From NCBI GenBank assembly GCA_964472945.1, contig CAYYNM010000002.1, positions 1 through 52,021 of the forward strand: a DNA stretch of 52,021 bases. Reading direction: 5' to 3'. Of the stretch, positions 5,370 to 36,169 are shown piece after piece. How positions within the stretch are numbered: position 1 is the first letter of the stretch; each line of letters begins with the position of its first letter. Source of the stretch: an uncultured Methylomarinum sp. GTDB taxonomy: Bacteria > Pseudomonadota > Gammaproteobacteria > Methylococcales > Methylomonadaceae. The notes under the pieces were generated by a model, which worked only from the letters and a program-made list of their open reading frames with translations, ran no database searches and was not told where the DNA came from. The position numbers and the translations under genes were made by a program.

Positions 5370-5424
5370 TAGCAGTATTAAATAGTGAGAAGTTAACAAT
5401 GACAAATTCTAAAATAGGTAATAA

Positions 5425-7575: not shown

Positions 7576-8445
7576 ATGGTTGTTGTTGGAACTGTTTACC
7601 CTGGTATTGAGAAATATATAAGTGATTATTTTTTGTCACTAAACAATCAAAGTATGAATGAATTTGATGTTCTTATTGCAAATGATGGTTTGAGTGAATT
7701 TGAGATAACATTAGATTCAAACAAGCATTTATGCAAGAGCTTAAATGTTAATGGAACTATTTCATCCAATAGAAGAAATGTTATTAGTCATGCAATTGAA
7801 ATGGGATACAAGAAAATAGTATTTACAGATTGCGATGATACATTTGAACAAAACCGAATAGAAGTTTTATGTGAGCTTCTTGGTAGAAATGCAGTCGTAG
7901 TGAATGACCTTGATCTAACCAATGAAGATGGAATACAACAAACAACTAAATATTTTTCTCAACGATTTAATGATGCTGATAAAATTAATGAGAACATGAT
8001 TCGTACCGGAAATATAATGGGTTTATCTAATACAGCTGTTTGTATTGAAGCTCTCAACGATATACCGGCCTTGATAGAAGGAGACTCTATTGCCTTTGAT
8101 TGGTATTTATGGGCTTGCGTTTTTCAATCAGGAATTGATGCGCTCTTTACTAGTAAAACATCAACTAAATATCGAGTTTATGGCAAAAATACGGCAGGGC
8201 TGCCGCAGGTACTTAATGAAAGTAATGTTCGTAAAGGTATAGAGGTAAAGCAGCAGCATTATAAGTTAATGAGTAAGTTTAATCGTGTATATGATGAATT
8301 ACACTGTGAATTTGAAGAGCTAAGTGGTAAATGGAAAAATAAGACTTGGCGAAATGAGTATATTAACGCACTAAAAGATAATTTTATTGGAAATCACATG
8401 TGGTGGGAAAATATACGGCCGCCATCAGAGGTAGGATTAGTATGA
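7576..8445 (+). CDS. GT-A-fold (DxD) glycosyltransferase-like protein, specificity unknown
   Basis: The ORF is open from GTG 7543; ATG 7576 gives 'MVVVGTVYPGIEKY...FDVLIANDGL', typical of a GT2-like N-terminus. 'FTDCDD' is a DxD candidate. I recognise no closer family. Confidence 0.45.
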   Translation: MVVVGTVYPGIEKYISDYFLSLNNQSMNEFDVLIANDGLSEFEITLDSNKHLCKSLNVNGTISSNRRNVISHAIEMGYKKIVFTDCDDTFEQNRIEVLCELLGRNAVVVNDLDLTNEDGIQQTTKYFSQRFNDADKINENMIRTGNIMGLSNTAVCIEALNDIPALIEGDSIAFDWYLWACVFQSGIDALFTSKTSTKYRVYGKNTAGLPQVLNESNVRKGIEVKQQHYKLMSKFNRVYDELHCEFEELSGKWKNKTWRNEYINALKDNFIGNHMWWENIRPPSEVGLV

Positions 8446-22352: not shown

Positions 22353-23855
22353 ATGAAGAAGATATTAGTAGAGCGTTTTCCTTCTATAGCAATTGACATA
22401 TTTCAACAACAACTAAAAAACTTAATAGATATTAAGATTGTTGTATATAATGGCGAAAAAATTGCTGTAAATCAAAATATTGAACTTTTAAATTCTTTAT
22501 CAATTTCAAAAGGTATTGGTATCGATTCTTGTCCTTGGTCTATAGGCTATATTGAGCAGAGATATTTTAGTGCGCATGAAGGTGTTTTTTTAAGTATTCT
22601 TTCTCGCTATGATATATATAAAAAAGCATTTACAACAGAAGAGATGTTAGATCACTACTATCGTCTAGTTAACTTCTGGATAAATAAAACAAAAAATATA
22701 GACGCTGTCTTTTCACTTGATATACCGCATGTACCTAGTTCTTTTGCACTATACTTGGTGACAAAGTTTTTAAAAATTCCATTTATCTATATTGATTCTG
22801 CTCTTGTTTATAATAAATTACAGTATTTAGGATGTTCTTTTAAACATAGAATGCTTTTAGCTGAAAATGAGCAGTTAACAGCAAAAGAATTTTTGACTGC
22901 TCATTATGATTTTTATACGGAGTATAATTCAGCTGATCAAGGCGTTGTTTCTAAATATGTCACATACTTAGAAAGTAGAGTAGAACGGTTATGGTGGAGT
23001 ATGTTAGTTCAAGATATTAATAGTAGTTTACCAATTTCCATTAAATCTATATTTAATGGAAATATAAAGTTAAGGGGTTTATACACGACAGAGCTAGGTT
23101 GGAAGATATCACGCAGAAGGTGGGATGACCCAAGATCTGGATTTTTACGCCCCTTTCTTTTTTTTGCAAAGTTACAAGAAAGAATAAAAATTTTATTTTC
23201 AAAAATAAGATATAGAAGGCTCTGTACAAACCATAAAAAACTCAATTCCTATATACTTTTTGCAGCAACAACGGAACCAGAATGTGCAACTTTACCTACT
23301 GCATTAGGTGGAAGGTCTATTGCAATAGCATTAAGAAGAATTGTTGAGGCGTTACCAGATGGTTGTACAGTCCTTTATAAAGGGCACCCAGGCCAGTTTG
23401 AACAGCAAGTATTATTTACAACAGAATGGAAAAGTAAATATTATTATGAGGACTTACAAAAGATAGGTAAAATAATCTTTGTAAGGGATGATATACCTAC
23501 GAAAGACTTGATTGAAGGCTCTATTGGTGTTGCTACAATTAATGGAACAATTGGGCTAGAGGCTTTGATGGGAGGAAGGCGTTGTATTACATTTGCTCCG
23601 CAGTGGTATGATGATTTTGATGGCTTACACTGTGTAAAATCTGGCAGTGATATTTCAGATGCTGTAAAATTAATGCTAGATAAAGTTTCTCCTAATCCGC
23701 AACCTAATCAGATTAAGTTTTCAAAACATTTTGTTGATATGGACGGTTATAATAATGCTACTTATACTAAAGAGGATTTTGAGAAAATATGTGCTGGTAT
23801 GTGGGGAGCATATAATGATTTTTTAGAAATTGATGATAGAAAATGGGAAGTATGA
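22353..23855 (+). CDS. Large orphan protein; candidate CMP-ulosonic-acid-dependent glycosyltransferase (Capsule_synth / sialyltransferase-like C-terminal half)
   Basis: 500 aa. The C-terminal 'ILFAATTEPE...LYKGHPGQ...IGVATINGTIGLEALMGGRRCITF' recalls the HP motif and the T(V/I)NST.G.EAL block of KpsC/KpsS/LpsZ-type enzymes. This is a recollection, not an alignment. Confidence 0.4.
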   Translation: MKKILVERFPSIAIDIFQQQLKNLIDIKIVVYNGEKIAVNQNIELLNSLSISKGIGIDSCPWSIGYIEQRYFSAHEGVFLSILSRYDIYKKAFTTEEMLDHYYRLVNFWINKTKNIDAVFSLDIPHVPSSFALYLVTKFLKIPFIYIDSALVYNKLQYLGCSFKHRMLLAENEQLTAKEFLTAHYDFYTEYNSADQGVVSKYVTYLESRVERLWWSMLVQDINSSLPISIKSIFNGNIKLRGLYTTELGWKISRRRWDDPRSGFLRPFLFFAKLQERIKILFSKIRYRRLCTNHKKLNSYILFAATTEPECATLPTALGGRSIAIALRRIVEALPDGCTVLYKGHPGQFEQQVLFTTEWKSKYYYEDLQKIGKIIFVRDDIPTKDLIEGSIGVATINGTIGLEALMGGRRCITFAPQWYDDFDGLHCVKSGSDISDAVKLMLDKVSPNPQPNQIKFSKHFVDMDGYNNATYTKEDFEKICAGMWGAYNDFLEIDDRKWEV

Positions 23856-24343
23856 TTATTGTCTAAAGAATTACTGGATAGAAAAAAAGACGCATGAATT
23901 TCGTTGATGATTGTAGAAGTAATGTTTTTTGTAATGATCGAAAAGTTTTTTTCAGAAGTAGTTGCAATTAACTTAAAAGTTCCCTGAATTGTTGGTTTAT
24001 TCTTATTTAGAATAAATTTTATTGGCGTTTTCTTGAAGTCTCTTTTGAATAGAATGGGCAAATTATCTAGGACAGTCCCTAGTATTAATATCAAATTTTG
24101 AAACGAGTGTAATAGGCAGTCTATCTTGTACTAATTTCTTTAATTTATACCTTTGTCAAATTTAAGCTCCTATTTATATAATTGGTCGATAATAGTAATG
24201 TGATGGAAAATTTCATAATAATTTAATACTTTTGTATTGTGATTTAGAATTATAAAACGTTATTTTAAATTCTATAAAACTATTGTTATTAAATTAATAT
24301 AATACTTCACATCTCATACATTTGTTTACATCTGGAGTAGGCA

Positions 24344-24955
24344 TTGAGTAATAAAATTGAATCTACGTTTCACGAATCCATAGCAGTTAAGCAGAAGTGC
24401 ATTGACATGGGTTTTAATGTTTTAGAAAAAATGGGAAATGAAATTACTGAGCTTTTACAAGTTGGCGGTAAAATCATGTTATGCGGCAATGGTGGTTCAG
24501 CCGCTGATGCACAACACCTAGCTGCTGAAATGCTTGTTCGATTACGTCCAAAGAATAACCGTGAAGGCATTCCCGCAATTGCTTTGGCACAGGATACTTC
24601 TACGATTACTGCATGCGGTAATGATTTTGGTTACGATGTGCTTTTTGAGCGCATGGTGACCACATTAGGAAATGAAGGGGATTGTCTCATTGCAATTACC
24701 ACATCAGGTAATTCTATAAATGTCATCAAAGCTATGCAAGCTGCAAGACATATAGGTATTAAAGTTTATGGTTTCCTGGGAGCAAGGGGTGGCGAAGCCT
24801 TACAGTATTGTGATGATGCTTTTGTTGTTCCAAGTGATAACACGGGTAGGATTCAGGAGTCACATATCACCGCTGGCCATGCCCTAATGGAATGCATCGA
24901 AGATAGTTTAATAGAAAATGGCTATCTTCATCTTCAGAGTCATAACTCGAAATGA
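24344..24955 (+). CDS. SIS-domain sugar-phosphate isomerase (GmhA-like)
   Basis: 203 aa. The TTG start has GGAG 7 nt upstream. Motifs are 'MLCGNGGSAADAQHLAAEM', 'ITTSGNS' and 'QESHITAGH'. Confidence 0.8.
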   Translation: MSNKIESTFHESIAVKQKCIDMGFNVLEKMGNEITELLQVGGKIMLCGNGGSAADAQHLAAEMLVRLRPKNNREGIPAIALAQDTSTITACGNDFGYDVLFERMVTTLGNEGDCLIAITTSGNSINVIKAMQAARHIGIKVYGFLGARGGEALQYCDDAFVVPSDNTGRIQESHITAGHALMECIEDSLIENGYLHLQSHNSK

Positions 24956-25467
24956 ATAATATGCAAAGTACAGTAATAAGCATTGATGATATTGATGTGA
25001 TTTTTTTTGATTTTGATGGTGTCTTAACAAATAATCTTGTGCATTTAGATCAAGATGGTAAAGAATGGGTAAGCTGTAGTCGAGCAGACGGATTAGCTTT
25101 CGACGTATTACGCAAACTAAATAAACCCGTATATATTCTTTCGACAGAAAAAAACTCAGTAGTAACAGCTAGAGCTAACAAGCTCAAAATACCTGCAATA
25201 CAAGGTGTTGAGAATAAGGCTGAAAAAATTAAAGTCTTGGTGAGTGAGATGAAGTTTGACCTTACTAAGGTGCTTTATGTTGGTAACGATTTGAATGACT
25301 TTCAGGCGATGGAGCTGTGCGGTTATACCGCTTGTCCATCTGATAGTCATGAAAAAATAAAAGAAATTTCATCTTTTGTGCTCGGTACTATGGGCGGAAA
25401 AGGTGTTGTTCGTGAATTACTGGAAAATGTTCTTAAGTTGAATTTTATTCAAATACTTTATCCATAA
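24952..25467 (+). CDS. HAD-IIIA (KdsC/YrbI-type) ulosonate-phosphate phosphatase
   Basis: 171 aa with an ATGA overlap. 'VIFFDFDGVLTNN' is the DxDG nucleophile motif. 'RADGLAFDVL', 'GNDLNDFQAM' and 'GGKGVVRELLE' are collinear with KdsC. Confidence 0.8.
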   Translation: MNNMQSTVISIDDIDVIFFDFDGVLTNNLVHLDQDGKEWVSCSRADGLAFDVLRKLNKPVYILSTEKNSVVTARANKLKIPAIQGVENKAEKIKVLVSEMKFDLTKVLYVGNDLNDFQAMELCGYTACPSDSHEKIKEISSFVLGTMGGKGVVRELLENVLKLNFIQILYP

Positions 25468-25488
25468 TTAAATTTAGAGAGGAAAGCT

Positions 25489-26334
25489 ATGTCTATATTT
25501 ATAGTTGCAGAAATTGGAATTAACCATAATGGTGATATGTCAATCTGTAAAGAATTAATTGATGTTGCATCAGACACGGGTTGTGATGCTGTTAAATTTC
25601 AAAAAAGAGATATCGACCAGGTATACACTCAAGATTTTCTTGATTCATCAAGAGAAAGTCCATGGGGAACAACTCAACGTGAACAGAAAGCGGGACTTGA
25701 GTTTACAGCTGATCAATATAATGAGATAGCTGACTACTGTAAAAGTAAAAAACTTGAATGGTTTGCTTCTGCTTGGGATACTAATAGCCAGAAATTTTTA
25801 CAACAGTTCAATTGTAAATTTAATAAAGTCGCTTCAGCTATGATTGTTCATGAAGAATTACTGAAGATGATTGCGCAAGAAAAGAAACACACTTTTATTT
25901 CAACGGGTATGACCACATACGAAGAAATCCAAACTGCTGTTGATATTTTTAGAGCTGCAGACTGTCCATTTGAATTAATGCATACAGTTTCTACTTATCC
26001 TATGAAGGATGAAGATGCCAATCTCAATATGATTAATACGCTAAGAGATAAATATCAGTGTGATGTTGGTTACAGTGGGCATGAGGTCGGTCTTGCAGTT
26101 TCTTATGCGGCTTCCGCCTTGGGAATTACATCACTTGAACGTCATATCACTGTTAATCGTGCAATGTATGGTTCTGATCAGTCAGCTTCTGTCGAGCCTG
26201 CAGGTATTCGCCAACTAGTGGGAGCCGTTAGAAAAATCGAAAAAGCAATGGGAGATGGTGTTAAAAAAGTGATTGATGCAGAAACACCCATTGCTCAAAA
26301 ATTACGTGAGCACCTAGCTTGGCAAGGTAGTTAA
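25489..26334 (+). CDS. NeuB-family PEP-condensing ulosonic acid synthase lacking the SAF domain
   Basis: 281 aa. Motifs are 'IVAEIGINHNGDMSICKELIDVASDTGCDAVKFQKR', 'GYSGHEVG' and 'LERHIT'. The protein ends right after the TIM barrel, with no C-terminal SAF/AFP-like domain, unlike the paralogue at 8442. Confidence 0.8.
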   Translation: MSIFIVAEIGINHNGDMSICKELIDVASDTGCDAVKFQKRDIDQVYTQDFLDSSRESPWGTTQREQKAGLEFTADQYNEIADYCKSKKLEWFASAWDTNSQKFLQQFNCKFNKVASAMIVHEELLKMIAQEKKHTFISTGMTTYEEIQTAVDIFRAADCPFELMHTVSTYPMKDEDANLNMINTLRDKYQCDVGYSGHEVGLAVSYAASALGITSLERHITVNRAMYGSDQSASVEPAGIRQLVGAVRKIEKAMGDGVKKVIDAETPIAQKLREHLAWQGS

Positions 26335-26359
26335 TCGTTCATTCTACAAGGTAAGCGAA

Positions 26360-27196
26360 GTGAAAAATATATTTGGTGTAATGCAAGGTAGGCTTGTTCC
26401 GAAATACCAAGGAAGATACCAAGCCCACCCCATAGGTAACTGGCAGAGAGAGTTTGAAGTTGCACAAGAAATTGGACTCGATTGTATCGAGTTTATTCTC
26501 GATTATAATGATGCTAATGAAAATCCTCTTTTGAAAGAAGGAGGAGTTAAAGAAATACAGTCAGTGATAGCGAAAACGGATGTTACAGTTAAAACAATTT
26601 GTGCAGATTATTTTATGGAAGCACCATTACATTCTGAAGATATTATAGAAGGAAAAAAGAGTCAGAAAATTATGGAGAGTTTATTGAATAGCGCAGCACA
26701 ACTCGGTGTTTCAGACGTGGTTGTACCCTGTGTAGATCAGTCAACACTTCATAATCAAGAGGCTGCTGATCGTTTCGTAAAGATGATGGCACCGGTTGTA
26801 CTGATTGCTGAACAACATGGCATCAACCTTTCTTTAGAAACAGACTTAGCACCAGCCCCTTTTGCTACTCTACTACAACGATTTAATTCTGATCGCGTTA
26901 CTGTTAATTACGATATTGGTAATAGTGCTGCACTGGGATTTGACCCGATTGAAGAGTTGAATTCATACGGCAAAAAAATTACAGATATTCACATTAAAGA
27001 CCGAGTTCTCGGTGGAGGGCCTGTGGAACTAGGTCAGGGTGATGCTGACTTTAATTCGTTCTTTTTAAAGCTCAAAGAGTTTGATTATACCGGCCCATTT
27101 ATAATGCAAGCTTATAGAGACGATGAAGGTGTTGCTATTTTTAAAAAACAATTAAAGTGGATCAAAAAACAAATGGAAGCATATAGTGCGAGTTAG
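26360..27196 (+). CDS. Xylose-isomerase-like TIM-barrel sugar(-phosphate) isomerase/epimerase
   Basis: 278 aa with a GTG start. Motifs are 'GLDCIEFILD', 'INLSLETD', 'VNYDIGNSAALGFDP', 'DIHIKDR' and 'GQGDADFNSFF', the pattern of the AP-endonuclease-2/UlaE-like fold. Confidence 0.7.
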   Translation: MKNIFGVMQGRLVPKYQGRYQAHPIGNWQREFEVAQEIGLDCIEFILDYNDANENPLLKEGGVKEIQSVIAKTDVTVKTICADYFMEAPLHSEDIIEGKKSQKIMESLLNSAAQLGVSDVVVPCVDQSTLHNQEAADRFVKMMAPVVLIAEQHGINLSLETDLAPAPFATLLQRFNSDRVTVNYDIGNSAALGFDPIEELNSYGKKITDIHIKDRVLGGGPVELGQGDADFNSFFLKLKEFDYTGPFIMQAYRDDEGVAIFKKQLKWIKKQMEAYSAS

Positions 27197-27884
27197 CTCA
27201 ATTATTCTGGCAAGAGGAGGTTCTAAAGGGATACCAAAAAAGAATCTTATAAACTTTTGTGGTAAACCACTTTTAGCATGGACAATCTTACAATCACTAG
27301 CAGCAAATAATGTAAGCGACACTTGGGTTAGCTCGGATAGTCAGGAAATGTTAGACGTAGCAGAGCAATATGGTGCTAAGTCTATTAAACGGCCAGATGA
27401 AATATCAGGGGATACTGAATCTTCAGAATCTGCATGGTTGCATGCAATAGATTTTATTGAAAGTCAACCAGACTCTGCTGCAATTGATTATGTGCTGGCT
27501 CCGCAAGTAACATCGCCATTAAGAGACGCATCTGATTTTTCTAATGCCATAAGTCAGTTTATAACAGAAAAATCTGACACACTTCTCTCTGTAGCAGAAA
27601 TTGAAGACTTTTTTATTTGGAAAAAAGATGAAAATGGAAATCCAGAGTCAGTTAATTATGATTATAAAAACCGAAAACTTCGTCAACAAATAGAAAATAG
27701 ATATTTAGAAAACGGTTCATTTTACATCTTTCCCCCTCAATTTCTGAAAGATAACAATAATAGATTGGGTGGAAAAATATCGCTGTATGAAATGGAGCGA
27801 TATAAAATGTTTCAGATTGATAATATAGAAGATGTTGAACTGTCTTCAGTTATTATGAAAGGATATGGTCTAGACAAAATATGA
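27186..27884 (+). CDS. Second acylneuraminate/ulosonate cytidylyltransferase (CMP-sugar synthetase)
   Basis: 232 aa with a GTG start overlapping the upstream gene. Motifs are 'IILARGGSKGIPKKNL', 'QVTSPLR' and 'NGSFYIF'. Confidence 0.8.
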   Translation: MRVSSIILARGGSKGIPKKNLINFCGKPLLAWTILQSLAANNVSDTWVSSDSQEMLDVAEQYGAKSIKRPDEISGDTESSESAWLHAIDFIESQPDSAAIDYVLAPQVTSPLRDASDFSNAISQFITEKSDTLLSVAEIEDFFIWKKDENGNPESVNYDYKNRKLRQQIENRYLENGSFYIFPPQFLKDNNNRLGGKISLYEMERYKMFQIDNIEDVELSSVIMKGYGLDKI

Positions 27885-28630
27885 GTAACTATATTGATAC
27901 TCTTTTTTCCTTAAAAGGAAAAACTGCAATTATAACGGGGGGATCTCGTGGGATTGGCGCTGGAATTGCACTTGGTTTTTTAAAAGCAGGCGCGAATATT
28001 ATTTGTGTGTCGAGATCAGAAAAAACCGAATTGAATGAACTCCAAGAATTTTATAAACAATGTGATATCACTGATAAGAAGCAATTCGATGCTATATGTA
28101 AGCAAGCTTGTGAATCATATGGAGGAATTGATATCCTTGTTAATGCAGCAGGCATTAGTTTGCCTTCAGATGATTCCTATTCAAAATTTGAACGATTCAC
28201 TAAAACCTTATCCGTTAATTTAATCTCAACCTATCAATGTTGTGAAATAGCATCTGAATTAATGCTAAATGGTGGAGCAATTATTAATATTACAAGTATT
28301 GGATCTATTCTTGGATTTCCTGATAATCCAGGTTATGTAGCAAGCAAAGGAGGCATTAGAGCTTTAACTAAAGCACTTGCTGAGGATTTGTCTGAAAATA
28401 ACATACGAGTCAATAATATCGCGCCTGGTTACACTAAAACTGATATGACTCAAAAAAGTTTTAGTGACTTAGAATTAAATAAGCAAAGAGTAGATAGAAT
28501 GATGATAAAGCGTTGGGGAAGTGTTGAGGATATAGCTGCTGCTGCAATTTTCTTAGCATCAAATGCATCATCATATATCACAGGTACAGACTTAATAGTT
28601 GATGGTGGCTGGACCGCAAAAGGTATCTAA
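27881..28630 (+). CDS. Short-chain dehydrogenase/reductase (classical SDR)
   Basis: 249 aa with an ATGA overlap. Motifs are 'AIITGGSRGIGAGIA' (TGxxxGxG), 'NAAG' and 'YVASKGG' (YxxxK). Confidence 0.85.
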   Translation: MSNYIDTLFSLKGKTAIITGGSRGIGAGIALGFLKAGANIICVSRSEKTELNELQEFYKQCDITDKKQFDAICKQACESYGGIDILVNAAGISLPSDDSYSKFERFTKTLSVNLISTYQCCEIASELMLNGGAIINITSIGSILGFPDNPGYVASKGGIRALTKALAEDLSENNIRVNNIAPGYTKTDMTQKSFSDLELNKQRVDRMMIKRWGSVEDIAAAAIFLASNASSYITGTDLIVDGGWTAKGI

Positions 28631-28631
28631 T

Positions 28632-29405
28632 GTGAATTTACAGTTGTCTGGGAAAAAGGTTCTTGTTACTGGCTCGTCTCAAGGTATAGGTGCCGCTATC
28701 GCCATTGGTTTTCTTAATGAAGGAGCTGATGTTGTTATTGTCTCAAGAGGCAAAGAAAAACTGTCCGCTTTGGCAAGTAAACTGAAAACTAAATATGGTA
28801 AAAGTCGAATACTTCATGCTACTTGTGATTGTGCTGATGCAGAGTCTCTTGAAGGATTAAGAAATTTTATCATTGCTAAGTGGGACAGGTTAGATATTGT
28901 TATCGCTAATGTAGGCGATGGAAAAAGTGTTCCTGAGGCTATTCCAAGTGATGAAGAATGGGTAAGAACATGGAATAGTAATTTTGAATCTGCACTTCAA
29001 ACATCACGAGTCTTTCTTCCTGAACTAAAAGTATCAAAAGGCAATTTACTTTTTATATCTTCAATAACCGCGCTGGAGGCATTTGGTGCACCGGTTGATT
29101 ACTCAACTGCTAAAACAGCGGTTGTTGCCTTTGCAAAAAATATAGCGAGAAAATTAGCACAAGAAGTTCGGGTTAATGTTTTAGCTCCGGGCAATGTTAA
29201 TTTTCCCGGAAGTTCTTGGGATAAAAAAATTAAGTCTGATCCTGAACGGATTAAAATATTAATAGAAAATACAGTTCCAATGAATCGCTTTGGAACACCT
29301 GAAGAAATAGCAGATGCTGCCATCTTTTTGTGTTCAGAAAAGGCAAATTTCATTACTGGTTCAGTGTTGGTGATTGATGGTGGTCAAACAGTAGGTATTT
29401 TGTAA
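28632..29405 (+). CDS. Short-chain dehydrogenase/reductase (classical SDR)
   Basis: GTG 28632 gives 'MNLQLSGKKVLVTGSSQGIGAAIA'; the track ORF extends to ATG 28599, overlapping the upstream gene. 'YSTAKTA' is the YxxxK motif. Confidence 0.82.
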   Translation: MNLQLSGKKVLVTGSSQGIGAAIAIGFLNEGADVVIVSRGKEKLSALASKLKTKYGKSRILHATCDCADAESLEGLRNFIIAKWDRLDIVIANVGDGKSVPEAIPSDEEWVRTWNSNFESALQTSRVFLPELKVSKGNLLFISSITALEAFGAPVDYSTAKTAVVAFAKNIARKLAQEVRVNVLAPGNVNFPGSSWDKKIKSDPERIKILIENTVPMNRFGTPEEIADAAIFLCSEKANFITGSVLVIDGGQTVGIL

Positions 29406-29407
29406 AT

Positions 29408-30244
29408 ATGAAAAATAATTTAGATACATTATTCAACTTAGAAGGCCAGGTTATCGTCATCACTGGTGCTGCTGGTCTACTCGGAAAACAACACGCTGAA
29501 GCGGTTGCAGCTTATGGTGGAACCCCAATTTTATTGGATCTTTCCCAAGAAGCTGTTGATACATTAGCAAAGCAGCTGAATGAGAAATATGATGTAAAGT
29601 CATCAGGTTTTGCGGTAGACATTACCGATGAAAAGCAAATAGAAGAGAATTCCAGTTTATTGATAAAACAATACGGCAAGATCGATGGACTTGTTAATAA
29701 TGCTGCAAACAACCCTAAAGTAGAGGATAGCTCAGAGAAAAATTTTTCGAGGCTTGAGAACTTTCCAATTGATGTTTGGAATCAAGATATTGCGGTGGGA
29801 TTGACTGGATCATTTCTTTGTTCGAAACACTATGGTTATCAGATCTCTCAAAATTCCAATGGTGGGAGTATCGTAAATATTTCCTCTGATCTTGGTTTAA
29901 TGGCGCCAGACCAAAGACTCTATGCTAAGCAAGGATTAGCTGAAGAGCTACAGCCCGTTAAACCAATAACTTACTCGATTGTTAAAACGGGAATGATAGG
30001 TTTGACAAGGTATTTAGCTACTTATTGGGCCGAAAAGAATGTTCGTTGCAATGCAATATGCCCAGGTGGAGTTGAAAATGGACAACCTGAAGATTTTTTA
30101 AAAGAGGTGTCTTCAAGAATCCCTATGAATAGGTTGGCGAATAGTAATGAATATCAAGGAACGCTACTTTGGATGTTGAGCGAAGCCTCTAGCTATTTAA
30201 ATGGAGCAATTGTGCCAGTAGAAGGTGGACGAACCGTTTGGTAA
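29408..30244 (+). CDS. Short-chain dehydrogenase/reductase (longer SDR variant)
   Basis: 278 aa. Motifs are 'VIVITGAAGLLGKQHA', 'NNAA' and 'YSIVKTG' (YxxxK). Confidence 0.82.
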   Translation: MKNNLDTLFNLEGQVIVITGAAGLLGKQHAEAVAAYGGTPILLDLSQEAVDTLAKQLNEKYDVKSSGFAVDITDEKQIEENSSLLIKQYGKIDGLVNNAANNPKVEDSSEKNFSRLENFPIDVWNQDIAVGLTGSFLCSKHYGYQISQNSNGGSIVNISSDLGLMAPDQRLYAKQGLAEELQPVKPITYSIVKTGMIGLTRYLATYWAEKNVRCNAICPGGVENGQPEDFLKEVSSRIPMNRLANSNEYQGTLLWMLSEASSYLNGAIVPVEGGRTVW

Positions 30245-30355: not shown

Positions 30356-31708
30356 ATGTCAAAAGAGTTGTTGGATAGAGAAAAAAATTACATGGATTTT
30401 GTAGAGCGCTGTTCTGATAACGCATTTCCAGATAGCTTATCTAATTTGTTGTATTATGAGAAAAGTTTATTTTTAAGAATTTGTGCTGGTCAGAGGTTAC
30501 TAAAAGGTTTATTTTTTAATGGGCACAAGGAGAGACTTTTAAATATTTCACAGTATGGTCCACAGAGGTTTTTTTTAGAATTAATAGTTATTCACTTACA
30601 CATTCCTTTGTTTTTAGCGCGAGTATTGTCAAAAATTAAATTTAGTATCACCTTATTCCGCTTATCATTGCGTTGGACAAGTAAAGAGTCTGCTAGTGAT
30701 TTATCCAATTATGAAAATCTAACCTTTCTAATGTCAGATTTTGCTAGATTAACCAATAGATTTACTGATGTCATTAGAGATGCTAAAAACCTTTGTGAGA
30801 TTCATTCTGACTGTGAAGTAAGATTGATTGCTAATGGTGATCATAGTTATTTCTTTTTACCACGGTTGTCACTTAATCAGTTCTTGAGCGTATTGCGCGC
30901 ACCATCATGGAAAATGACGTATTTAATCCGCGCTTATAGACAGCACAACTTTATTGAGAAATATAATATTGATAATGCTTATATTGTAGATGGTGACTCT
31001 CCTAGCAGTGTAAGTTCTGCTTATGCAGCGAATTTATCTGATACTACCAGCACTTGTATTCAATGGGGAACGATGGCTATGGGTATTAAACCTGGATACA
31101 AACTTTTTCCGTTTAACTATTTTTTATGTACAGGACAATATTATGTTGATTTACTAAGTCCTTTTTCAGATAGAACTAAATTCCTGGTAAGTGAATTTAT
31201 AAATAATGCCAAATTTGATGAAAAAATTGATTTTAATAGATGCGGCTCAGTATTGTTCGTATTGAATGAATCAGAAACAGCAATTTCAAAAGAGGAATCT
31301 GATTTTTTAATAAATTTATGTGTCGAAACAAAGAAGCGATTTCCAGATTTAAATGTTACCGCTAGACCTCATCCAGATATGTTTTTAAATGAGGTGGCTG
31401 TCAGTTTATTTAAAGAGTGTGGGGTGGTTATCGATAACGCCACTAATCCAAATATTGCATTAAGTGAAAATAAATTTTTGGTTGGGCATGTATCAAGCCT
31501 TATGATTGAATCTATAGAATATGATTGTTTCCCTATATTTATGGAGATAGGTATAAAACAGCTACATCCAGATTTGGTGGCTTTATCTGCTGCAATGAAG
31601 TTTGAAACAAAAAAAGAGTGGTTTCTATTATTAGATGACCTATTAAAAAACTATTGTAACTATACAGCGCAAACATCACTTAAGATGTCTTTAAATAATA
31701 GAGAGTAA
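30356..31708 (+). CDS. Large orphan protein; second candidate CMP-ulosonic-acid transferase
   Basis: 450 aa with no clear TM segment. The C-terminal half has 'VLFVLNESE', 'VTARPHPDMF' (HP motif) and 'LVGHVSSLMIESIEYDCFPIF', the same order of blocks as in ORF 22353. No family is assigned. Confidence 0.35.
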   Translation: MSKELLDREKNYMDFVERCSDNAFPDSLSNLLYYEKSLFLRICAGQRLLKGLFFNGHKERLLNISQYGPQRFFLELIVIHLHIPLFLARVLSKIKFSITLFRLSLRWTSKESASDLSNYENLTFLMSDFARLTNRFTDVIRDAKNLCEIHSDCEVRLIANGDHSYFFLPRLSLNQFLSVLRAPSWKMTYLIRAYRQHNFIEKYNIDNAYIVDGDSPSSVSSAYAANLSDTTSTCIQWGTMAMGIKPGYKLFPFNYFLCTGQYYVDLLSPFSDRTKFLVSEFINNAKFDEKIDFNRCGSVLFVLNESETAISKEESDFLINLCVETKKRFPDLNVTARPHPDMFLNEVAVSLFKECGVVIDNATNPNIALSENKFLVGHVSSLMIESIEYDCFPIFMEIGIKQLHPDLVALSAAMKFETKKEWFLLLDDLLKNYCNYTAQTSLKMSLNNRE

Positions 31709-31720
31709 TTTGTATGGTAT
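31688..31720. repeat. Direct repeat copy A (33 nt; 30/33 identical to copy B)
   Basis: TCTTTAAATAATAGAGAGTAATTTGTATGGTAT. It contains the last 6 codons plus the stop of ORF 30356-31708 and a dead 'ATG GTA TAA'. Confidence 0.9.
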
Positions 31721-32301
31721 AAAAAAGTTGGAGATGATGTATTGATATCTTCTAATATTGCTTTCACTTTATTATGGGAAATATATCTCTACCTTTATTA
31801 GAAGTTTTTTATTTGAAGTTTTATTATGTGTGGGTAGGCTAGAAATTTAGCATGGTGATAGAACGTCTGGAATGTGATTGCTTGTTAGCTTTCATGATAT
31901 CGGATTAAATTATTTATAACTTGAATTAATTAAGTTGTTAGCAGTAAAGTTTTTTAAAATGAAATAAATGGTTTGATATTGTTAATAATATCAATTAATA
32001 ATTACGGATTTCCTTCAAAATTAAAGTTGGCACAGGTTTGCTATGAATAATACAAGGTCATAGAGTATTAATAAAACTCTAATTTTTAGTTAGGTATTAT
32101 ATCAATAATAATCTCATTTCTTCGAATTTATGTTAACAATAATTATTAATAAAAAATAATTCAATTTACAATGAGCGCGCTAGAATATAAAGATATCTAT
32201 TTTTATTAGATATGATTGATTCCTGATGAATTATATTAAATCTGATTTTCTATCAGCTTATGATAAATATATTGTAATAATAAGGGTAAGTTTTTTATAA
32301 T

Positions 32302-33855
32302 ATGCTTTTTAATTCATATGAGTTCATTTTTCTTTTTCTACCCTTAACGCTACTTGTTTTTTATTTAATAGGCGCGCAAGGATATCATCGAATTGCAATT
32401 GCTTGGTTGGTTGGTGCATCACTCTTCTTTTATAGCTGGTGGAATCCTGCATATCTTGGGCTGATGCTATTCTCAATAATCTTTAACTATAGTATTGGTG
32501 TAGCACTTGGAATTAACCAAAATAGCCCACAGAAAAAATTAATACTGTTTTTGGGCGTTGCAACAAACTTAAGCTTACTTGGATATTTTAAATATGCCAA
32601 TTTTTTTGTAGAAAATATCAACTCATTGAATAGTAATGATTTTAATTTCAATGAAATTATCCTTCCTCTTGCTATTAGCTTCTTCACCTTTCAGCAAATA
32701 GCTTATCTTGTTGACACATACCGAGGAGAGACTAAGGAGTATAATTTTCTCCACTATTGCCTCTTTGTTACATTTTTCCCACAATTAATCGCGGGACCTA
32801 TTGTTCATCATAAGGAGATGTTGCCACAGTTTGCAAAAGATATTGTGTATAGAATGCAAGCTAAAAATTTTTCAATAGGTTTAACTATCTTAGCTATAGG
32901 GCTTTTTAAAAAAGTTGTTCTTGCAGATGGTATATCAATTTATGCAATCCCCGTATTTGATCTTGCTGAAGCAGGTGGGGCGTTAACAATTTTTGAGGCT
33001 TGGGGCGGGGCATTAGCATATAGTTTCCAACTCTATTTTGATTTTTCTGGTTACTCTGATATGGCAATAGGATTAGCTAGAATGTTTGGAATACGCCTTC
33101 CACAAAACTTTAATTCACCTTATAAGGCGACTTCTATTATTGATTTTTGGGGGCGTTGGCATATTACATTGTCTAGATTTCTGCGTGACTACGTATATAT
33201 TCCTCTTGGCGGAAATAGAAAAGGTGAATTTCGTCGCCTTACAAATATATTGTTTACAATGCTGCTGGGTGGTTTATGGCATGGCGCTGGGTGGACTTTT
33301 GTTCTGTGGGGAGGACTACATGGTACTTATCTTGTTATTAATCATATTTGGCGAAAAATATTTAGTTCAAAGATAAAATCTAAGTCTGGTATATTTATTG
33401 CGTGGATATTAACCATGTTTGCTATAGTCATATCTTGGGTTCCTTTTAGGGCAGCAAGTATAGAGGGAGCGAATAATATGTTAATAGCAATGGTTGGGGG
33501 GAATGGCATTTCTTTGCCAGCACGACTTACGGGGAGTATTGGCAATCTAGAACATTGGTTGGTTGAATACGGGGTTACTTATACTAGTGTTTTTTATAAC
33601 GGAGTATTCGACCTGCAAGGAGTAGTATGGATTGTAGTCTTACTTTTAATTTCTGTTTCTTTGCCAAACATACAACAAATTATGTTTCATACTAACTCTG
33701 ATACTGAATGTTTTAAAGGTGAGGTTTCAAAATTACGACATCACTGGATTAAGTGGCAACCATCAAGAGCATGGTCCATATTTACAGCAGTAGTTTTCCT
33801 GATTTCAATTATAAATTTATCAAAAGCGAGTGAGTTTTTATATTTTCAATTTTAA
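32302..33855 (+). CDS. MBOAT-family membrane O-acyltransferase (AlgI/DltB-like)
   Basis: 517 aa and polytopic. It has the 'MLFNSYEFIFLFLPLTLLVFYL' N-terminus, 'FFTFQQIAYLVD', 'DFSGYSDMAIGLARMFG' and 'GGLWHGAGWTF' (conserved His). Confidence 0.9.
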   Translation: MLFNSYEFIFLFLPLTLLVFYLIGAQGYHRIAIAWLVGASLFFYSWWNPAYLGLMLFSIIFNYSIGVALGINQNSPQKKLILFLGVATNLSLLGYFKYANFFVENINSLNSNDFNFNEIILPLAISFFTFQQIAYLVDTYRGETKEYNFLHYCLFVTFFPQLIAGPIVHHKEMLPQFAKDIVYRMQAKNFSIGLTILAIGLFKKVVLADGISIYAIPVFDLAEAGGALTIFEAWGGALAYSFQLYFDFSGYSDMAIGLARMFGIRLPQNFNSPYKATSIIDFWGRWHITLSRFLRDYVYIPLGGNRKGEFRRLTNILFTMLLGGLWHGAGWTFVLWGGLHGTYLVINHIWRKIFSSKIKSKSGIFIAWILTMFAIVISWVPFRAASIEGANNMLIAMVGGNGISLPARLTGSIGNLEHWLVEYGVTYTSVFYNGVFDLQGVVWIVVLLLISVSLPNIQQIMFHTNSDTECFKGEVSKLRHHWIKWQPSRAWSIFTAVVFLISIINLSKASEFLYFQF

Positions 33856-33894
33856 AATTGAAGAAAATAAATATTTATTTAAAATCTAGCAATT

Positions 33895-34944
33895 ATGAAA
33901 TTTTCGACATACTTAGTAAGCACGATCTCATTAGTTTTTCTTGGGCTTATGATTGTATCAATAACTAATTATACCGTTGATCCAGCTGGTATCTACCATA
34001 AGTATAAGTTTTCAGAAAAGCTTGTTTTGAAATTAGCGTCATCTAAGAATGGATTGATATTTCGTGGTGCCTGGAACAATAGAGATGTTGTCTTAGCCCT
34101 GGCAAAATACTCTGCCGAAACTTCTTGTTATGTAATTGGTAGTAGTCATGTGGGTCATATTGGATCTGCTAGGCAGAAAAAATCACTCACTCATAGTTGC
34201 CCAGATCTGATAAACCTATCAGTGGCAGGAGCTTCATTAGAAGATTATATTGCTCTATCAAGCGCTATCTTAGAAAATAAAAACCAGCCTAAAACTATTG
34301 TTTTTGGAATTGACCCCTGGAGTTTAAATTTTAATCGAGACAAAAGGTGGCTTAGATATAAGGATGAATATGAGTCTTTATCACAAACAATAAGTAATAC
34401 TAACAATAAATATTATATAGAAAACTCATTAATAAAAAATCTAATTAATGCCGAATATTTTATTCGCTCTATTAATAATATTAAATCAACAGATAAAACG
34501 ATTACTGAGGCCCCTGATTTTGATCAAATAGTTGGTTATAACGAACCAGTACGATTACCCGATGGTAGTTCTGTGTACTCTAAAAAGACTATCCAAAAGA
34601 GAAAAGGTCAAGTCGTGACAGGACTCCACCGTTATAAAATTGTTGAAAATGTTTGGTATAGTGAAAATGCTGTTAAGACATTTAATCTTCTCCTGAAGTA
34701 CTTACAACAAAGGTATAAAGTAATATTAGTTTTGGCACCTTACCACCCCGCTATTTGGAAGCATGAAGATCAGCCTATTGTTACTGCAATGAAGGTTATA
34801 GAAGATAAAGTACATGAGATAGCCAAATCTTTAAGCATAAAAGTTCTTGGTTCATATGATCCTGAAATAGTTGGTTGTACAGCAGGAGATTTTATTGATG
34901 ATATGCATTCATCAGCCGATTGTATGATGAAATTAGAAAGATGA
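33895..34944 (+). CDS. Membrane-anchored periplasmic SGNH/DltD-like partner of the MBOAT
   Basis: 349 aa. An N-terminal signal anchor (LVSTISLVFLGLMIVSI) is followed by 'VIGSSHVG' (block I Ser candidate) and the C-terminal 'IDDMHSS' (DxxH block V candidate). It lies immediately downstream of the MBOAT. Confidence 0.55.
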   Translation: MKFSTYLVSTISLVFLGLMIVSITNYTVDPAGIYHKYKFSEKLVLKLASSKNGLIFRGAWNNRDVVLALAKYSAETSCYVIGSSHVGHIGSARQKKSLTHSCPDLINLSVAGASLEDYIALSSAILENKNQPKTIVFGIDPWSLNFNRDKRWLRYKDEYESLSQTISNTNNKYYIENSLIKNLINAEYFIRSINNIKSTDKTITEAPDFDQIVGYNEPVRLPDGSSVYSKKTIQKRKGQVVTGLHRYKIVENVWYSENAVKTFNLLLKYLQQRYKVILVLAPYHPAIWKHEDQPIVTAMKVIEDKVHEIAKSLSIKVLGSYDPEIVGCTAGDFIDDMHSSADCMMKLER

Positions 34945-34967
34945 TAATGTGGTATAACAATAATCAA

Positions 34968-35000
34968 TCTTTCAACAATAGAGAGTAATATGTATGGTAT
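34968..35000. repeat. Direct repeat copy B (33 nt)
   Basis: TCTTTCAACAATAGAGAGTAATATGTATGGTAT. It carries a relic '...SFNNRE*' reading and the functional ATG (34994) of the Wzy-like gene. Confidence 0.9.
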
Positions 35001-36169
35001 TAAGTAACAAAGAAGCTTCCACATATAAGTTGTTTATAGCTCTTAATGTTATAGTGATCCTATTTGCGGTTACACTTTTACTCTCCTTATGGAAACCTGG
35101 ATCTGGAGTTGAAAGAGTTGGGAATGTTATATCACTTCTGCTGATATTGCTTTCATTTCTTTTTTATGGAAAATTTAAATTTACCCCTGTTAGAGGCTTT
35201 TTATTTTCAATCAGCATTGCTTTATATGTAGCTCGGCCAGGTATTTTTACAATTGGCGTGCCACTTGTACCATTACTAGGCTTATTTCTATCCACTAAAA
35301 AACATAATTTTGATTTATTCAAAAGAGTGTATATGAAGAGTGCAAAAAAAATATCTGTAGCCACTTTTCTCGTGGTTTATTTGATTCTTTATCTGTCAAA
35401 ACTTAAATTTGGAGGCGGTACCGCTAATTTAGTGTCTATTTTGGCGATATATATTATTGCATTAAATTTAATTTTTTTTCGTGAAGCATTTATTTCTACC
35501 GTTCTTGTTGCCGTAGTGTTTAGTGTTTTATTTACTCCCGGCCCAGTAAGTTATGGCGAATCTCCAACCTTTGGGGTTCCAAATACTCATCAAGGTAATA
35601 GATCGGCTGTTTTTTTATTGCTGTTTTTATTCAGTATAAAACATATAAAGTACTTGTATTCTGTCGTCATCAAAAAAAAATATTTTGTTTGGTTTTCTCT
35701 TGCACTAATCCCTTTCTTTATCTTAATGGTACTAATAATTAGTGATTTTATGCAAAGAGGTAAAATGGCTAATATTTATTCCGATCCGAGGTTTCAATGG
35801 TTTATGCCAATGATTAAATTGCTTGTAAATGAAGGTTTTATTTCATTTTTTGATAATGGATCGGAGATGTTGCGTACTTTAGGTGATGGAAGAAGAAACC
35901 CACATAACTCATTTTTCTATTTATTGTTAGAGCAATATTGGCTTGGGCTATTTAAAATATTAATATTCTTTTTCTCAGTATTCATAATACCTGTTTCAGC
36001 TTGGCTTGCCATAGCTGGTAGAGCATCATTTGATATCTTTTTTCTCCTCGGCCCGCAAGATATTATTTTAGTTGTATTATTTTCTGAGTTTTATAATTTC
36101 AGGTTTAAGAAGGGATATTATTTACCACTTTTAAGTAATAGGAAAAATGATGAAAAAATTAATACATAA
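34994..36169 (+). CDS. O-antigen polymerase / ligase-family membrane protein (Wzy/WaaL-like)
   Basis: 391 aa with ~10 hydrophobic helices. A loop followed by 'RRNPHNSFFYLLLEQYWLG' resembles the HN..L...E.G motif of the Wzy_C/O-antigen ligase domain. Confidence 0.6.
   Translation: MVLSNKEASTYKLFIALNVIVILFAVTLLLSLWKPGSGVERVGNVISLLLILLSFLFYGKFKFTPVRGFLFSISIALYVARPGIFTIGVPLVPLLGLFLSTKKHNFDLFKRVYMKSAKKISVATFLVVYLILYLSKLKFGGGTANLVSILAIYIIALNLIFFREAFISTVLVAVVFSVLFTPGPVSYGESPTFGVPNTHQGNRSAVFLLLFLFSIKHIKYLYSVVIKKKYFVWFSLALIPFFILMVLIISDFMQRGKMANIYSDPRFQWFMPMIKLLVNEGFISFFDNGSEMLRTLGDGRRNPHNSFFYLLLEQYWLGLFKILIFFFSVFIIPVSAWLAIAGRASFDIFFLLGPQDIILVVLFSEFYNFRFKKGYYLPLLSNRKNDEKINT

Follow-up and report, generated by a model that had tools for sequence, protein, structure and literature searches.

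A putative O-acylation gene pair between two copies of a duplicated gene junction in a polysaccharide operon of an uncultured marine bacterium

The stretch of DNA analysed here (the window, 52,021 nucleotides) is, by its gene content, one long single-strand polysaccharide operon of the O-antigen or capsule type, and it comes from an uncultured marine bacterium that is probably gammaproteobacterial. One strand carries all of the genes for Wzz, a NusG/RfaH-like protein (with an ops element), two NeuB pathways, glycosyltransferases, WecB, WecC and an initiating transferase of the GT4 family. The sole taxonomic clue is WecC, with 69-70% identity to proteins of a Candidatus Thioglobus single-cell genome and of a Gammaproteobacteria MAG. 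In the segment considered below, ORF30356 on the left and a gene for a Wzy-like membrane protein on the right are separated by two genes that encode an MBOAT-family O-acyltransferase and its membrane-anchored partner (Table 1). The coordinates of these four ORFs are the same as in the preliminary description of this DNA, and all data, for the window as well as for the related loci, come from metagenome contigs. A dead 5' fragment of ORF30356 also immediately follows the Capsule_synth gene, and a 6.4-kb pathway block lies to the right of this fragment.

Table 1. Features of the segment from ORF30356 to the Wzy-like gene, in window coordinates
Feature	Position	Strand	Content or basis
ORF30356, left flank, 450 aa	30356..31708	+	GT-B fold, candidate glycosyltransferase
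Copy A of the junction repeat	31688..31720	+	Live last 21 nt of ORF30356, 5-nt spacer, dead ATGGTAT
w', decayed 5' fragment of the Wzy-like gene	31709..31842	+	nt 1-7, then about nt 119-247; deletion of about 111 nt, in-frame stops
O', decayed 3' fragment of an ORF30356 allele	31843..32004 (about)	+	Colinear with -229 to -55 before the stop
AT-rich stretch	32005..32264	+	GC about 0.22
Conserved 5' leader of the MBOAT gene, common to L096	32265..32301	+	Start of homology in the L096 alignment
MBOAT-family O-acyltransferase, 517 aa	32302..33855	+	Pfam MBOAT, C-terminal FLYFQF
Membrane-anchored partner with SGNH-like fold, 349 aa	33895..34944	+	AF2/Foldseek, invariant residues
Right-hand joint, 23 nt, unique to the window lineage	34945..34967	+	Between the end of cassette homology and copy B
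Copy B of the junction repeat	34968..35000	+	Relic of the last 21 nt of ORF30356 with stop, 5-nt spacer, live Wzy-like start
Downstream duplicate of the junction segment, full extent	34968..35240	+	-21 to about +247
Wzy-like polytopic membrane protein, right flank, 391 aa	34994..36169	+	Hydrophobic segments, loop

Family searches placed neither flanking gene. ORF30356 has no sequence match in Pfam, NCBIfam or the PDB, only 17 homologs of it were found, and a scan of a genome collection with its family profile returned no relative among 185,579 species representatives. Its AF2 model (pLDDT 77) was matched by Foldseek to GT-B proteins, including the polysialyltransferase 5wcn and UDP-GlcNAc 2-epimerases (E about 2e-4), which makes it a candidate GT-B glycosyltransferase; its donor may possibly be a CMP-activated ulosonic acid. 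The Wzy-like protein contains about 10 hydrophobic segments, and an invariant RRNPHNSF stretch lies in its large loop (residues 250-321). Searches of Pfam, NCBIfam and the PDB gave no match that supports Wzy membership, the sole match being DUF6442 with an E value of 1.4e-3, below the cutoff of that model. We take the RRNPHNSF motif to resemble the O-antigen ligase family.

The two genes in between look like a standard MBOAT-SGNH acyltransferase pair. The first product matches Pfam PF03062 (E 3.1e-34, 119 bits against a cutoff of 27 bits) and PF13813 (E 8.5e-9), has about seven strongly hydrophobic segments by prediction and ends in SEFLYFQF, the last six residues of which fit FXYXXF, the C-terminal acyl-shuttle motif with the acyl-accepting Tyr of MBOAT-SGNH systems (PMC12148441). 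The best match to this protein in a metagenome scan is only 66% identical and so offered no closely related gene context. Its identification as DltB was rejected: it reaches 176.9 bits with the NCBIfam model TIGR04091, which has a cutoff of 375, and dltA, dltC and dltD were not found in the window. The partner gene starts 39 nt 3' of the MBOAT gene. Its product is predicted to have one N-terminal transmembrane helix (residues 5-23), and its AF2 model (pLDDT 90.7, pTM 0.83) finds in the PDB, among the best Foldseek matches, almost exclusively SGNH/GDSL esterases such as 3dt6 (E 4e-3) and 7pzg, with probabilities of 0.95-1.0, E values of 4e-3 to 1e-1 and target-normalised TM scores of 0.5-0.63. 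Residues S84 (in G82-S83-S84), D335 and H338 are invariant or nearly so in 51 homologs, and their order and spacing are those expected for the block I Ser and the block V DxxH of a Ser-His-Asp catalytic triad, which they may form. All four genes are under purifying selection, with dN/dS values of, for example, 0.08-0.18 for the MBOAT gene and 0.15-0.23 for ORF30356.

Judging from these sequence and model features, the pair probably adds acyl groups to a surface sugar polymer. According to the mechanistic model taken from PMC12148441, cytoplasmic acyl-CoA would be the source of an acyl group, most likely acetyl, that the MBOAT protein would transfer to the Tyr of FLYFQF, and the Ser of the SGNH partner would then hand this group to the polymer in the periplasm. 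The arrangement resembles PatA/PatB, AlgI with AlgJ/AlgX and WssH/WssI (PMC12148441, PMC4148444) in that an MBOAT protein with the C-terminal FXYXXF motif adjoins a membrane-anchored protein of SGNH fold with conserved Ser, Asp and His. Unlike in those systems, the partner here is matched by neither Pfam nor NCBIfam, nor by any sequence in the PDB, and the pair resides within an O-antigen or capsule-type operon and is accompanied by no AlgF-like or other accessory gene.

The preliminary description drew attention to a 33-nt direct repeat around this pair, and our recount bears this out. Copy A (TCTTTAAATAATAGAGAGTAATTTGTATGGTAT) and copy B (TCTTTCAACAATAGAGAGTAATATGTATGGTAT) are identical at 30 of 33 positions by direct comparison. 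When the 24-nt core was searched across the 52-kb window, with the variable base set to N and up to three mismatches allowed, it occurred exactly twice, and none of 100 dinucleotide-preserving shuffles contained any match; a chance origin of the repeat is thus ruled out. A search of the genome for the core had been proposed as a means of recognising a dispersed repeat family. On the scale of the window and the related loci such a family is rejected, since the window holds no third copy and the related loci carry the junction sequence once each, always at the same junction. An assembly artefact is rejected as well: three other assemblies, probably from related samples, are colinear with the window and show the layout free of indels (L001 with 7 SNPs, L002 with 1 and L003 with 0). 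The relic in copy B carries AGAGAG 8 nt upstream of the Wzy-like ATG, which is likely the ribosome-binding site of that gene.

The related loci bear on the meaning of the repeat. At five of them (L007, L008, L009, L010 and L011) the Wzy-like gene comes immediately after a homolog of ORF30356 with 66-76% protein identity, either across a gap of 5-7 nt or with an overlap, and the MBOAT pair is absent. The empty site for which an alignment of relatives had been suggested was therefore found, and the uninterrupted junctions support the proposal that the repeat is the conserved original junction (stop, about 5 nt, ATG) of ORF30356 and the Wzy-like gene. The pair is present in the window, in the related locus represented by L004 and L092, in the P0003 contig and in L096, so that the cassette is variably present among related lineages, and the preliminary interpretation is supported on this point. 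In the P0003 contig the MBOAT protein is 89% identical and the pair is situated upstream of a methyltransferase gene and an ORF30356 homolog. In L096 the order is ORF30356 homolog, 125 nt, MBOAT gene, partner gene, 95 nt, Wzy-like gene, with no duplication and no junction sequence at all; here the MBOAT protein is 78% identical, and the ORF30356 homolog and the Wzy-like protein only 45-46%. Upstream of the ORF30356 homolog L096 also carries a relic of the 3' end of Capsule_synth.

Across the relatives, cassette homology sets in 0-37 nt upstream of the MBOAT start codon and does not go beyond the stop codon of the partner gene; the unit that they have in common is only the two ORFs. In L096, positions 3576-6257 are homologous to window positions 32265-34944. 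The right-hand joint is bounded accordingly, with homology ending at 34946 for L092 and at 34944 for L096, and similarity to the 3' end of ORF30356 starting at 34968. Between the window and L004/L092, dS values are similar, at 0.39 for ORF30356 and 0.49-0.51 for the cassette genes.

The duplication, which had been put at 33 bp, is in fact at least 268 bp long and extends from the last 21 nt of ORF30356 to about nt 247 of the Wzy-like gene. With blastn, 31722-31814 matches 35112-35206 (74% over 96 columns, E 5e-12); with tblastn, residues 38-77 of the Wzy-like protein align to 31716-31832; and the fragment w' obtains 14.5-14.8 bits with nhmmer against a profile of the uninterrupted junctions, whereas none of 500 shuffles exceeds -1.5 bits. 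Relative to the downstream copy of the Wzy-like gene, the copy A side has an internal deletion of about 111 nt. The 33 nt are the best-kept part of the duplication, and they stayed alike because each part of them is under constraint in at least one copy. The 'dead ATG GTA TAA' that had been noted in copy A is indeed there, and it is where the decayed Wzy-like 5' fragment w' begins.

The debris continues with O', which directly follows w'. This fragment matches the ORF30356 homologs of L011 (65.6% over 154 nt, E 1.6e-11) and L096 (67.9% over 159 nt, E 1.8e-13) by blastn, and its nhmmer score of 9.8 bits was reached by 0 of 500 shuffles. Therefore, the AT-rich leader of about 580 nt is not simply cargo of the cassette, as had been thought, since its first 300 nt or so are decayed fragments, one of the 5' end of the Wzy-like gene and one of the 3' end of an ORF30356 allele. 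The remaining AT-rich stretch (32005-32264) has no detectable homology to anything and contains no further significant Wzy-like or ORF30356 remnants. An RNA gene, a promoter or a terminator in the AT-rich spacer was considered and dropped: there is no credible Rfam match and no terminator, and promoter-like sites are not enriched (21 versus 17.9 ± 5.1 in shuffles). L004/L092 have a frameshifted w' remnant of 72 nt to the left of the pair and no junction relic on the right side. Their spacer additionally harbors an IS1595 element with its own 25-nt inverted repeats and an 8-bp target-site duplication (TACTAAAG), and once this element is subtracted, the spacer has only w' in common with that of the window.

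This anatomy bears on whether the pair was ancestral at the junction and was lost from the apparently empty relatives by precise deletion between the repeats. Recombination of direct repeats would leave a single clean junction, and L096, with an ORF30356 homolog of only 45% identity, has the pair at the same position. However, the two junction copies in the window imply that the junction is older than the insert, all five pair-less relatives (66-76%) keep the tight junction, L096 has no junction sequence, and the order of w' followed by O' records an insertion with duplication. We regard such a loss as very improbable.

In our favoured account, to which we give a probability of roughly 0.72, a piece of about 3.1 kb from another allele of the locus recombined into the junction, and at least 268 bp of the target were duplicated in the process. 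Ancestrally, ORF30356 and the Wzy-like gene would have been packed 5 nt apart, and from this spacing it follows that the ribosome-binding site of the Wzy-like gene likely lay inside the last codons of ORF30356. The incoming piece (about 31843-34967 of the window) would have comprised the 3' end of ORF30356 of the foreign allele, the leader, the MBOAT gene and the gene of the SGNH-like partner, and it would have come from an L096-like locus, in which ORF30356 is already followed by the pair; a donor with identical ends was not found among the loci compared. Integration may have occurred by illegitimate joins or by a single-crossover 'insertion-duplication', the duplicated target being the segment that starts with the last 21 nt of ORF30356 (-21) and reaches about position +247 in the Wzy-like gene. 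Copy A would then complete ORF30356, and copy B would provide the Wzy-like gene with its native upstream region and start. The duplication would thus have kept both neighbours intact, and the spare halves w' and O' would have decayed towards AT, with deletions.

A foreign origin of O' is part of this account. O' is 56% identical to the resident ORF30356 allele versus 60-65% to other alleles, and its divergence from the resident gene exceeds that of w' from the Wzy-like gene (Fisher p = 0.004). It agrees with L096 at 31 sites and with the resident allele at 16 (p = 0.02), and at sites on which the seven near alleles all agree, it shares their base in 10 cases and departs from it in 6. These statistics are modest, and by them O' probably arrived with the cassette from a foreign allele. 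The same map would also result if a resident segment of about 480 bp (-229 to +247) was first duplicated in tandem and the pair was inserted later, between -55 and -21, into the spare ORF30356 fragment; the selection-free stretch of w' and O' between two intact genes would then have served as the landing site. One would argue for this order of events that w' abuts O' directly at about 31842/31843, like the joint of a tandem duplication, that only some 33 nt are unaccounted for between the end of O' at -55 and the beginning of the copy B relic at -21, and that w' is closest to the resident Wzy-like gene (74%). However, O' resembles the resident ORF30356 less than it does any other allele and is significantly more diverged than w', and a second independent insertion would be needed almost where L096 already carries the pair. 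A weak, non-significant alignment with L010 additionally suggests that O' may reach its own stop codon. We consider a tandem duplication as the first step unlikely.

It could also be asked whether the pair travels as a dedicated mobile element, either with the 24-33-nt core as an att-like site or as a transposon with an unusually long target duplication. Direct repeats flank the insert, the same pair occurs at different positions in related loci, and fragments of IS elements or integrases adjoin MBOAT pairs in two relatives. Against this, the window has no recombinase or transposase ORF, which confirms the earlier statement that transposase and integrase are lacking; in the ORF domain search, no ORF from 28.6 to 40.2 kb has a transposase domain, and no integrase is present. 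The insert has no terminal inverted repeats, the homology of the cassette stops at the ORF boundaries, and the similarity runs far past the core into fragments of both flanking genes, with a duplication (at least 268 bp) that includes gene fragments. The pair-bearing loci L092 and L096 have no second copy of the core. IS1595 was rejected as the vehicle, as its own inverted repeats and target-site duplication inside the spacer mark it as a secondary insertion. Both a transposon or IS insertion with a target-site duplication and a site-specific att-type cassette were therefore rejected, and a mobile element of any such kind seems hardly credible here.

The anatomy fits recombination between alleles, either illegitimate or by a single crossover, and of the two options put forward earlier the cassette exchange by recombination is the one supported. 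We infer this route from the sequence, and recombination is likely the cause of the presence and absence of the cassette among lineages. The other option, an unrecognised insertion mechanism, is not needed, as the anatomy is consistent with ordinary recombination of the kind seen in other polysaccharide clusters that have wzy remnants (PMC3715488). That recombination joints in O-antigen clusters can hold remnants of genes is well established, and in Salmonella (groups B1, D1 and D3) wzy remnants decaying by serial deletions as well as a partial wzy duplication have been described (PMC3715488). The present locus shares with these mosaic clusters a polysaccharide operon with a module that is lineage-specific, being present or absent among syntenic loci, fragments of wzy and of neighbouring genes left at the joints, decay of the remnants by different serial deletions in each lineage (the window versus L004) and secondary IS insertions in the debris. 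It differs from them in that the debris amounts to a 5-nt gene junction cleanly duplicated in direct orientation, with both neighbours intact, that the inserted module is a modification pair and not a sugar-pathway, glycosyltransferase or wzy block, and that the host is an uncultured marine bacterium.

Single-crossover (Campbell-type) integration and merodiploids (PMC3784515) offer a second comparison. As there, the insert is flanked by directly duplicated target DNA, here a few hundred bp, and no dedicated recombinase is needed. In contrast, the recombination-generated duplications that arise on DNA uptake measure 100-900 kb (PMC3784515) and ours only a few hundred bp, and unlike in Campbell-type cases the insert begins on the left with part of a divergent homologous gene, which is joined at a position without homology.

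Phages or islands also carry serotype-converting O-acetylation modules, which as a rule encode acyltransferases of the AT3 family and reside on prophages outside the cluster. The MBOAT-SGNH pair described here is like them in being an accessory acylation function that varies between lineages and is expected to alter the surface antigen, and unlike them in lying inside the cluster with no phage genes nearby. O-acylation of the polysaccharide is expected to differ between lineages that have the pair and those that lack it, and such predicted variation among co-occurring marine lineages bears on recognition by phages and grazers.

The case as a whole is a tidy but ordinary instance of the evolution of polysaccharide gene clusters and reveals no new mechanism or kind of element. 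Its value is that of a well-resolved natural example in which an operon gains a modification module between two translation-coupled genes and neither of them is broken, with the direction of the insertion polarised by the duplication, by the uninterrupted junctions in relatives and by the likely arrangement of the donor. Two unannotated protein families, the GT-B family of ORF30356 and that of the SGNH-like partner, are also flagged by it. A more general reading would be that junction duplications of a few hundred bp are a recurrent, recombinase-free means by which modules pass from one allele of this operon family to another: with a junction copy on either side, a module could be looped out by homologous recombination and could re-enter at any plain junction by a single crossover, restoring both coupled neighbours. 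We consider this generalisation quite doubtful, and the hint that the pattern is not a one-off comes from a second trace, namely the ORF30356 5' fragment near Capsule_synth together with the Capsule_synth relic of L096.

Our analysis indicates that the MBOAT gene and its SGNH-like partner were inserted between two genes whose junction is now present twice. The preliminary description had reported a 33-nt direct repeat around the pair, and its two copies, A at the end of the left flanking gene (ORF30356) and B at the start of the Wzy-like gene, indeed have the sequences claimed and are identical at 30 of 33 positions. The repeat is also above chance: a search of the 52,021-nt window for its 24-nt core, with one variable base set to N and up to three mismatches allowed, found it twice, and none of 100 dinucleotide-preserving shuffles contained a match. 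The four open reading frames agree with the earlier description as well. Three further public assemblies (one NCBI metagenome contig and two Logan contigs) are colinear with the window with 7, 1 and 0 SNPs, which makes an assembly artefact unlikely, though the samples are probably related. The Logan contigs L003 and L002 end at window positions 31737 (17 nt past copy A) and 34964 (4 nt before copy B), respectively; the cause could be poor coverage of AT-rich DNA or an assembly-graph branch from a co-existing variant.

The repeat is, however, not confined to 33 nt, as had been supposed, but continues into fragments of both flanking genes. Positions 31722-31814 are 74% identical to 35112-35206 (E 5e-12), and the offset between the copies shifts by about 111 nt, therefore copy A has suffered an internal deletion. 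When translated, this decayed 5' fragment (w') matches residues 38-77 of the Wzy-like protein and contains in-frame stops. In every available ORF30356 allele, the DNA directly 3' of w' has a colinear counterpart between -229 and -55 upstream of the stop codon; this DNA constitutes a decayed 3' fragment of that gene (O'). A DNA profile built from the uninterrupted junctions of relatives scored w' at 14.5-14.8 bits and O' at 9.8 bits, while the top score in 500 dinucleotide shuffles of the spacer was -1.5 bits.

Features discussed in the text, in window order and then in related contigs
Feature	Position	Strand	Remark
NusG/RfaH-like gene	1853-2374		
ops element GGCGGTAG	2511-2518	+	exact; just upstream of first biosynthesis gene (2567)
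ORF, 300 aa	7543-8445		no Pfam match at E 1e-5
Two NeuB-type pathways	8400-9497 and 24344-27884		
ORF, 324 aa	13122-14096		no Pfam match at E 1e-5
ORF, 472 aa	14134-15552		no Pfam match at E 1e-5
Capsule_synth gene	22353-23855		
ORF30356 decayed 5' fragment	23830-24021		right after Capsule_synth gene; intergenic region 23856-24343
6.4-kb block	24344-30244		SIS, HAD, NeuB, AP_endonuc_2, cytidylyltransferase, three SDRs
ORF30356	30356-31708	+	
Junction copy A	31688-31720		
w' (Wzy-like 5' fragment)	31716-31832 (part aligned to residues 38-77)		
O' (ORF30356 3' fragment)	31833-32004		
AT-rich DNA			~260 nt, after O'
Conserved leader			37 nt, before MBOAT gene
MBOAT gene	32302-33855		
SGNH-like partner gene	33895-34944		followed by 23 nt
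Relic of last 21 nt of ORF30356			leads into copy B
Junction copy B	34968-35000		
Wzy-like gene (live)	34994-36169	+	
IS1595-family element	L004 1663-2202 joined to L092 1-481		Pfam DDE_Tnp_IS1595, E 3.6e-9
Capsule_synth-ORF30356 boundary	L010 6172-6185		Capsule_synth gene, 12 nt, ORF30356 homolog; no block between
Capsule_synth 3' end relic	L096 2029-2139		111-nt spacer upstream of ORF30356 homolog
Integrase-core fragment, 71 aa (rve_2/rve_3)	L094 9714-9929		71 nt upstream of MBOAT-partner pair

The inserted segment had been thought to include an AT-rich leader. Homology of the cassette among the window and the related loci L092 and L096 extends only from 0-37 nt before the MBOAT ATG to the stop codon of the partner; the mobile unit thus consists of the two genes only, and the leader lies outside it. 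The low GC content of the spacer (0.23 vs 0.355 for the window) is the appearance of decaying non-coding DNA in an AT-rich genome.

The ORF30356 family is small (17 proteins among 5.8 billion). Relatives derive from marine metagenomes, TARA among them. The empty site that had been suggested as a check exists: five contigs carry the same flanking genes with an uninterrupted junction and no MBOAT gene. Their ORF30356 homologs are 74, 72, 68, 66 and 76% identical to ours (L007 to L011, in this order), and the gap to the Wzy-like gene is 5 nt in three of them and 7 nt in one, while in the fifth the genes overlap. A closer lineage (ORF30356 homolog 85% identical) is represented by two sets of contigs. 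In L004, L005 and L006 the junction is followed by a frameshifted 72-nt Wzy-like fragment, 88% identical to the live gene of the window; L092 and L093 stem from two of these samples and have the MBOAT gene (83%) and the partner (71%); their live Wzy-like gene has no junction relic. One IS1595-family element, whose inverted repeats are imperfect and 25 nt long (GGCTATGTTTGA...) and whose target duplication spans 8 bp (TACTAAAG), bridges the two sets. This element entered the spacer that separates the Wzy-like fragment from the MBOAT gene after the debris had formed. The closest MBOAT (89%), with a partner of equal length, was found on the 8,128-nt P0003/P0018 contig of JGI 3300072015, upstream of a methyltransferase, an ORF30356 homolog (81%) and a Wzy-like gene. 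In L096 the pair (MBOAT 78%, partner 66%) lies between a very divergent ORF30356 homolog (45%) and a divergent Wzy-like gene (46%), with spacers of 125 and 95 nt and no duplication. A 71%-identical pair in L094 lies downstream of an integrase-core fragment in an unrelated context, with a DUF4123 gene and large unannotated ORFs on the opposite strand.

The presence of two junction copies means that the junction predates the insert and therefore that the pair was gained in this lineage. Two routes yield an identical map. In the first, a piece of about 3.1 kb (about 31843-34967) would have been imported from a locus with the pair after ORF30356, as in L096, and on integration a target stretch of at least 268 bp, from -21 to about +247, would have been duplicated. 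In the second, a tandem duplication of about 480 bp of resident DNA (-229 to +247) would have come first, followed by entry of the pair into the spare ORF30356 fragment. We prefer import with moderate confidence, because O' is farthest from the resident allele (96/171, 56%, vs 60-65% to other alleles, L096 being highest), because w' matches its resident gene significantly better (71/96) than O' does its own (Fisher p = 0.004), and because the L096 arrangement, a plausible donor type, exists. The affinity of O' is mixed rather than clean: 31 sites favour L096 and 16 the resident allele (p = 0.02), and at sites where the seven nearer alleles agree it sides with those alleles 10 to 6. In principle, recombination can duplicate its target with no dedicated recombinase: known cases are insertion-duplication by a single crossover and duplications triggered by transformation (PMC3784515).

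Comparison of the window with the L004/L092 lineage gave similar dS values for ORF30356 (0.39) and for the cassette genes (0.49-0.51), and w' is present in both lineages; thus the gain of the pair probably predates their split. The debris then probably decayed along separate paths, as wzy remnants in Salmonella did (PMC3715488).

It could be asked why the 33 nt stayed alike while the rest decayed. The first 21 nt of copy A are the coding end of ORF30356, which is under purifying selection (dN/dS 0.15-0.23). Copy B has AGAGAG 8 nt before the Wzy-like ATG, and this region with the first codons would be the native initiation region of the gene; the two changes in the ORF30356 relic of this copy both fall within the first nine bases of that relic. 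We infer from these features that copy A was retained as the end of ORF30356 and copy B for initiation of the Wzy-like gene. The duplication permits insertion between genes with overlapping signals, since otherwise ORF30356 would be truncated or the initiation region lost.

The insertion was tested as a transposon and as an att-type integrative cassette and proved to be neither. In sequence and fold the pair has the features of an MBOAT-SGNH pair, and the locus is a mosaic polysaccharide cluster with gene remnants. The insertion belongs to already known kinds; particular here is that a 5-nt gene junction was duplicated cleanly and that a fragment of probably foreign origin can still be traced at the insert's left end.

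Debris of this type occurs a second time: a decayed ORF30356 5' fragment follows the Capsule_synth gene, left of the 6.4-kb block. This fragment covers about nt -30 to +52 and +213 to +289, with an internal deletion between. The L010 locus has no such block, and L096 retains a Capsule_synth relic (0/300 shuffles) that is weak in the window.

All 49 large ORFs of the window share a single strand; their products include Wzz, a fused ABC transporter, WecB, WecC, an initiating transferase, several glycosyltransferases and methyltransferases, and two NeuB-type ulosonic or nonulosonic acid pathways. WecC, a gene prone to horizontal transfer, is 69-70% identical to homologs in a Candidatus Thioglobus single-cell genome and a Gammaproteobacteria MAG. 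On this gene's evidence an uncultured gammaproteobacterium of marine origin is the probable source. The NusG/RfaH-like gene followed by the ops element points to antitermination of the RfaH type along the entire 49-kb single-strand operon; since 22 of 100 shuffles contain at least one such 8-mer somewhere, it is solely its position that makes the case. With such an opening, read-through transcription over the 593-nt spacer is plausible; the region searched had no terminator, and promoter-like sites were not enriched.

The pair likely O-acylates the polysaccharide of this operon, the acyl group probably being acetyl. The MBOAT is assigned to Pfam PF03062 (E 3e-34) and, at 177 bits against a 375-bit cutoff, does not qualify as a DltB equivalog. 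Its C-terminal FLYFQF fits FXYXXF, the motif whose Tyr bears the acyl group in PatA and DltX (PMC12148441). Sequence-family searches with the partner gave no match; its predicted fold is confident (pLDDT 90.7), and SGNH/GDSL esterases make up nearly all of its best structural neighbours. A single TM helix is predicted at its N terminus, and Ser84, Asp335 and His338, the candidate catalytic triad, are invariant or nearly invariant in 51 homologs. Both genes are under purifying selection. The acyl group would pass from acyl-CoA to the MBOAT tyrosine, the SGNH serine and finally the polymer.

The first NeuB pathway comprises a NeuB with SAF domain, a dehydratase, two aminotransferases, a PglD-like acetyltransferase and a cytidylyltransferase; the second has a short NeuB, SIS, a HAD phosphatase, a xylose-isomerase-like TIM barrel and a second cytidylyltransferase. 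ORF30356 has no Pfam, NCBIfam or PDB sequence match. Its predicted structure combines a GT-B fold with a helical domain at the N terminus and has neighbours that include a bacterial polysialyltransferase (5wcn), and R337, H339 and P340 are invariant; ORF30356 may transfer one of the CMP-activated ulosonic acids that the operon makes.
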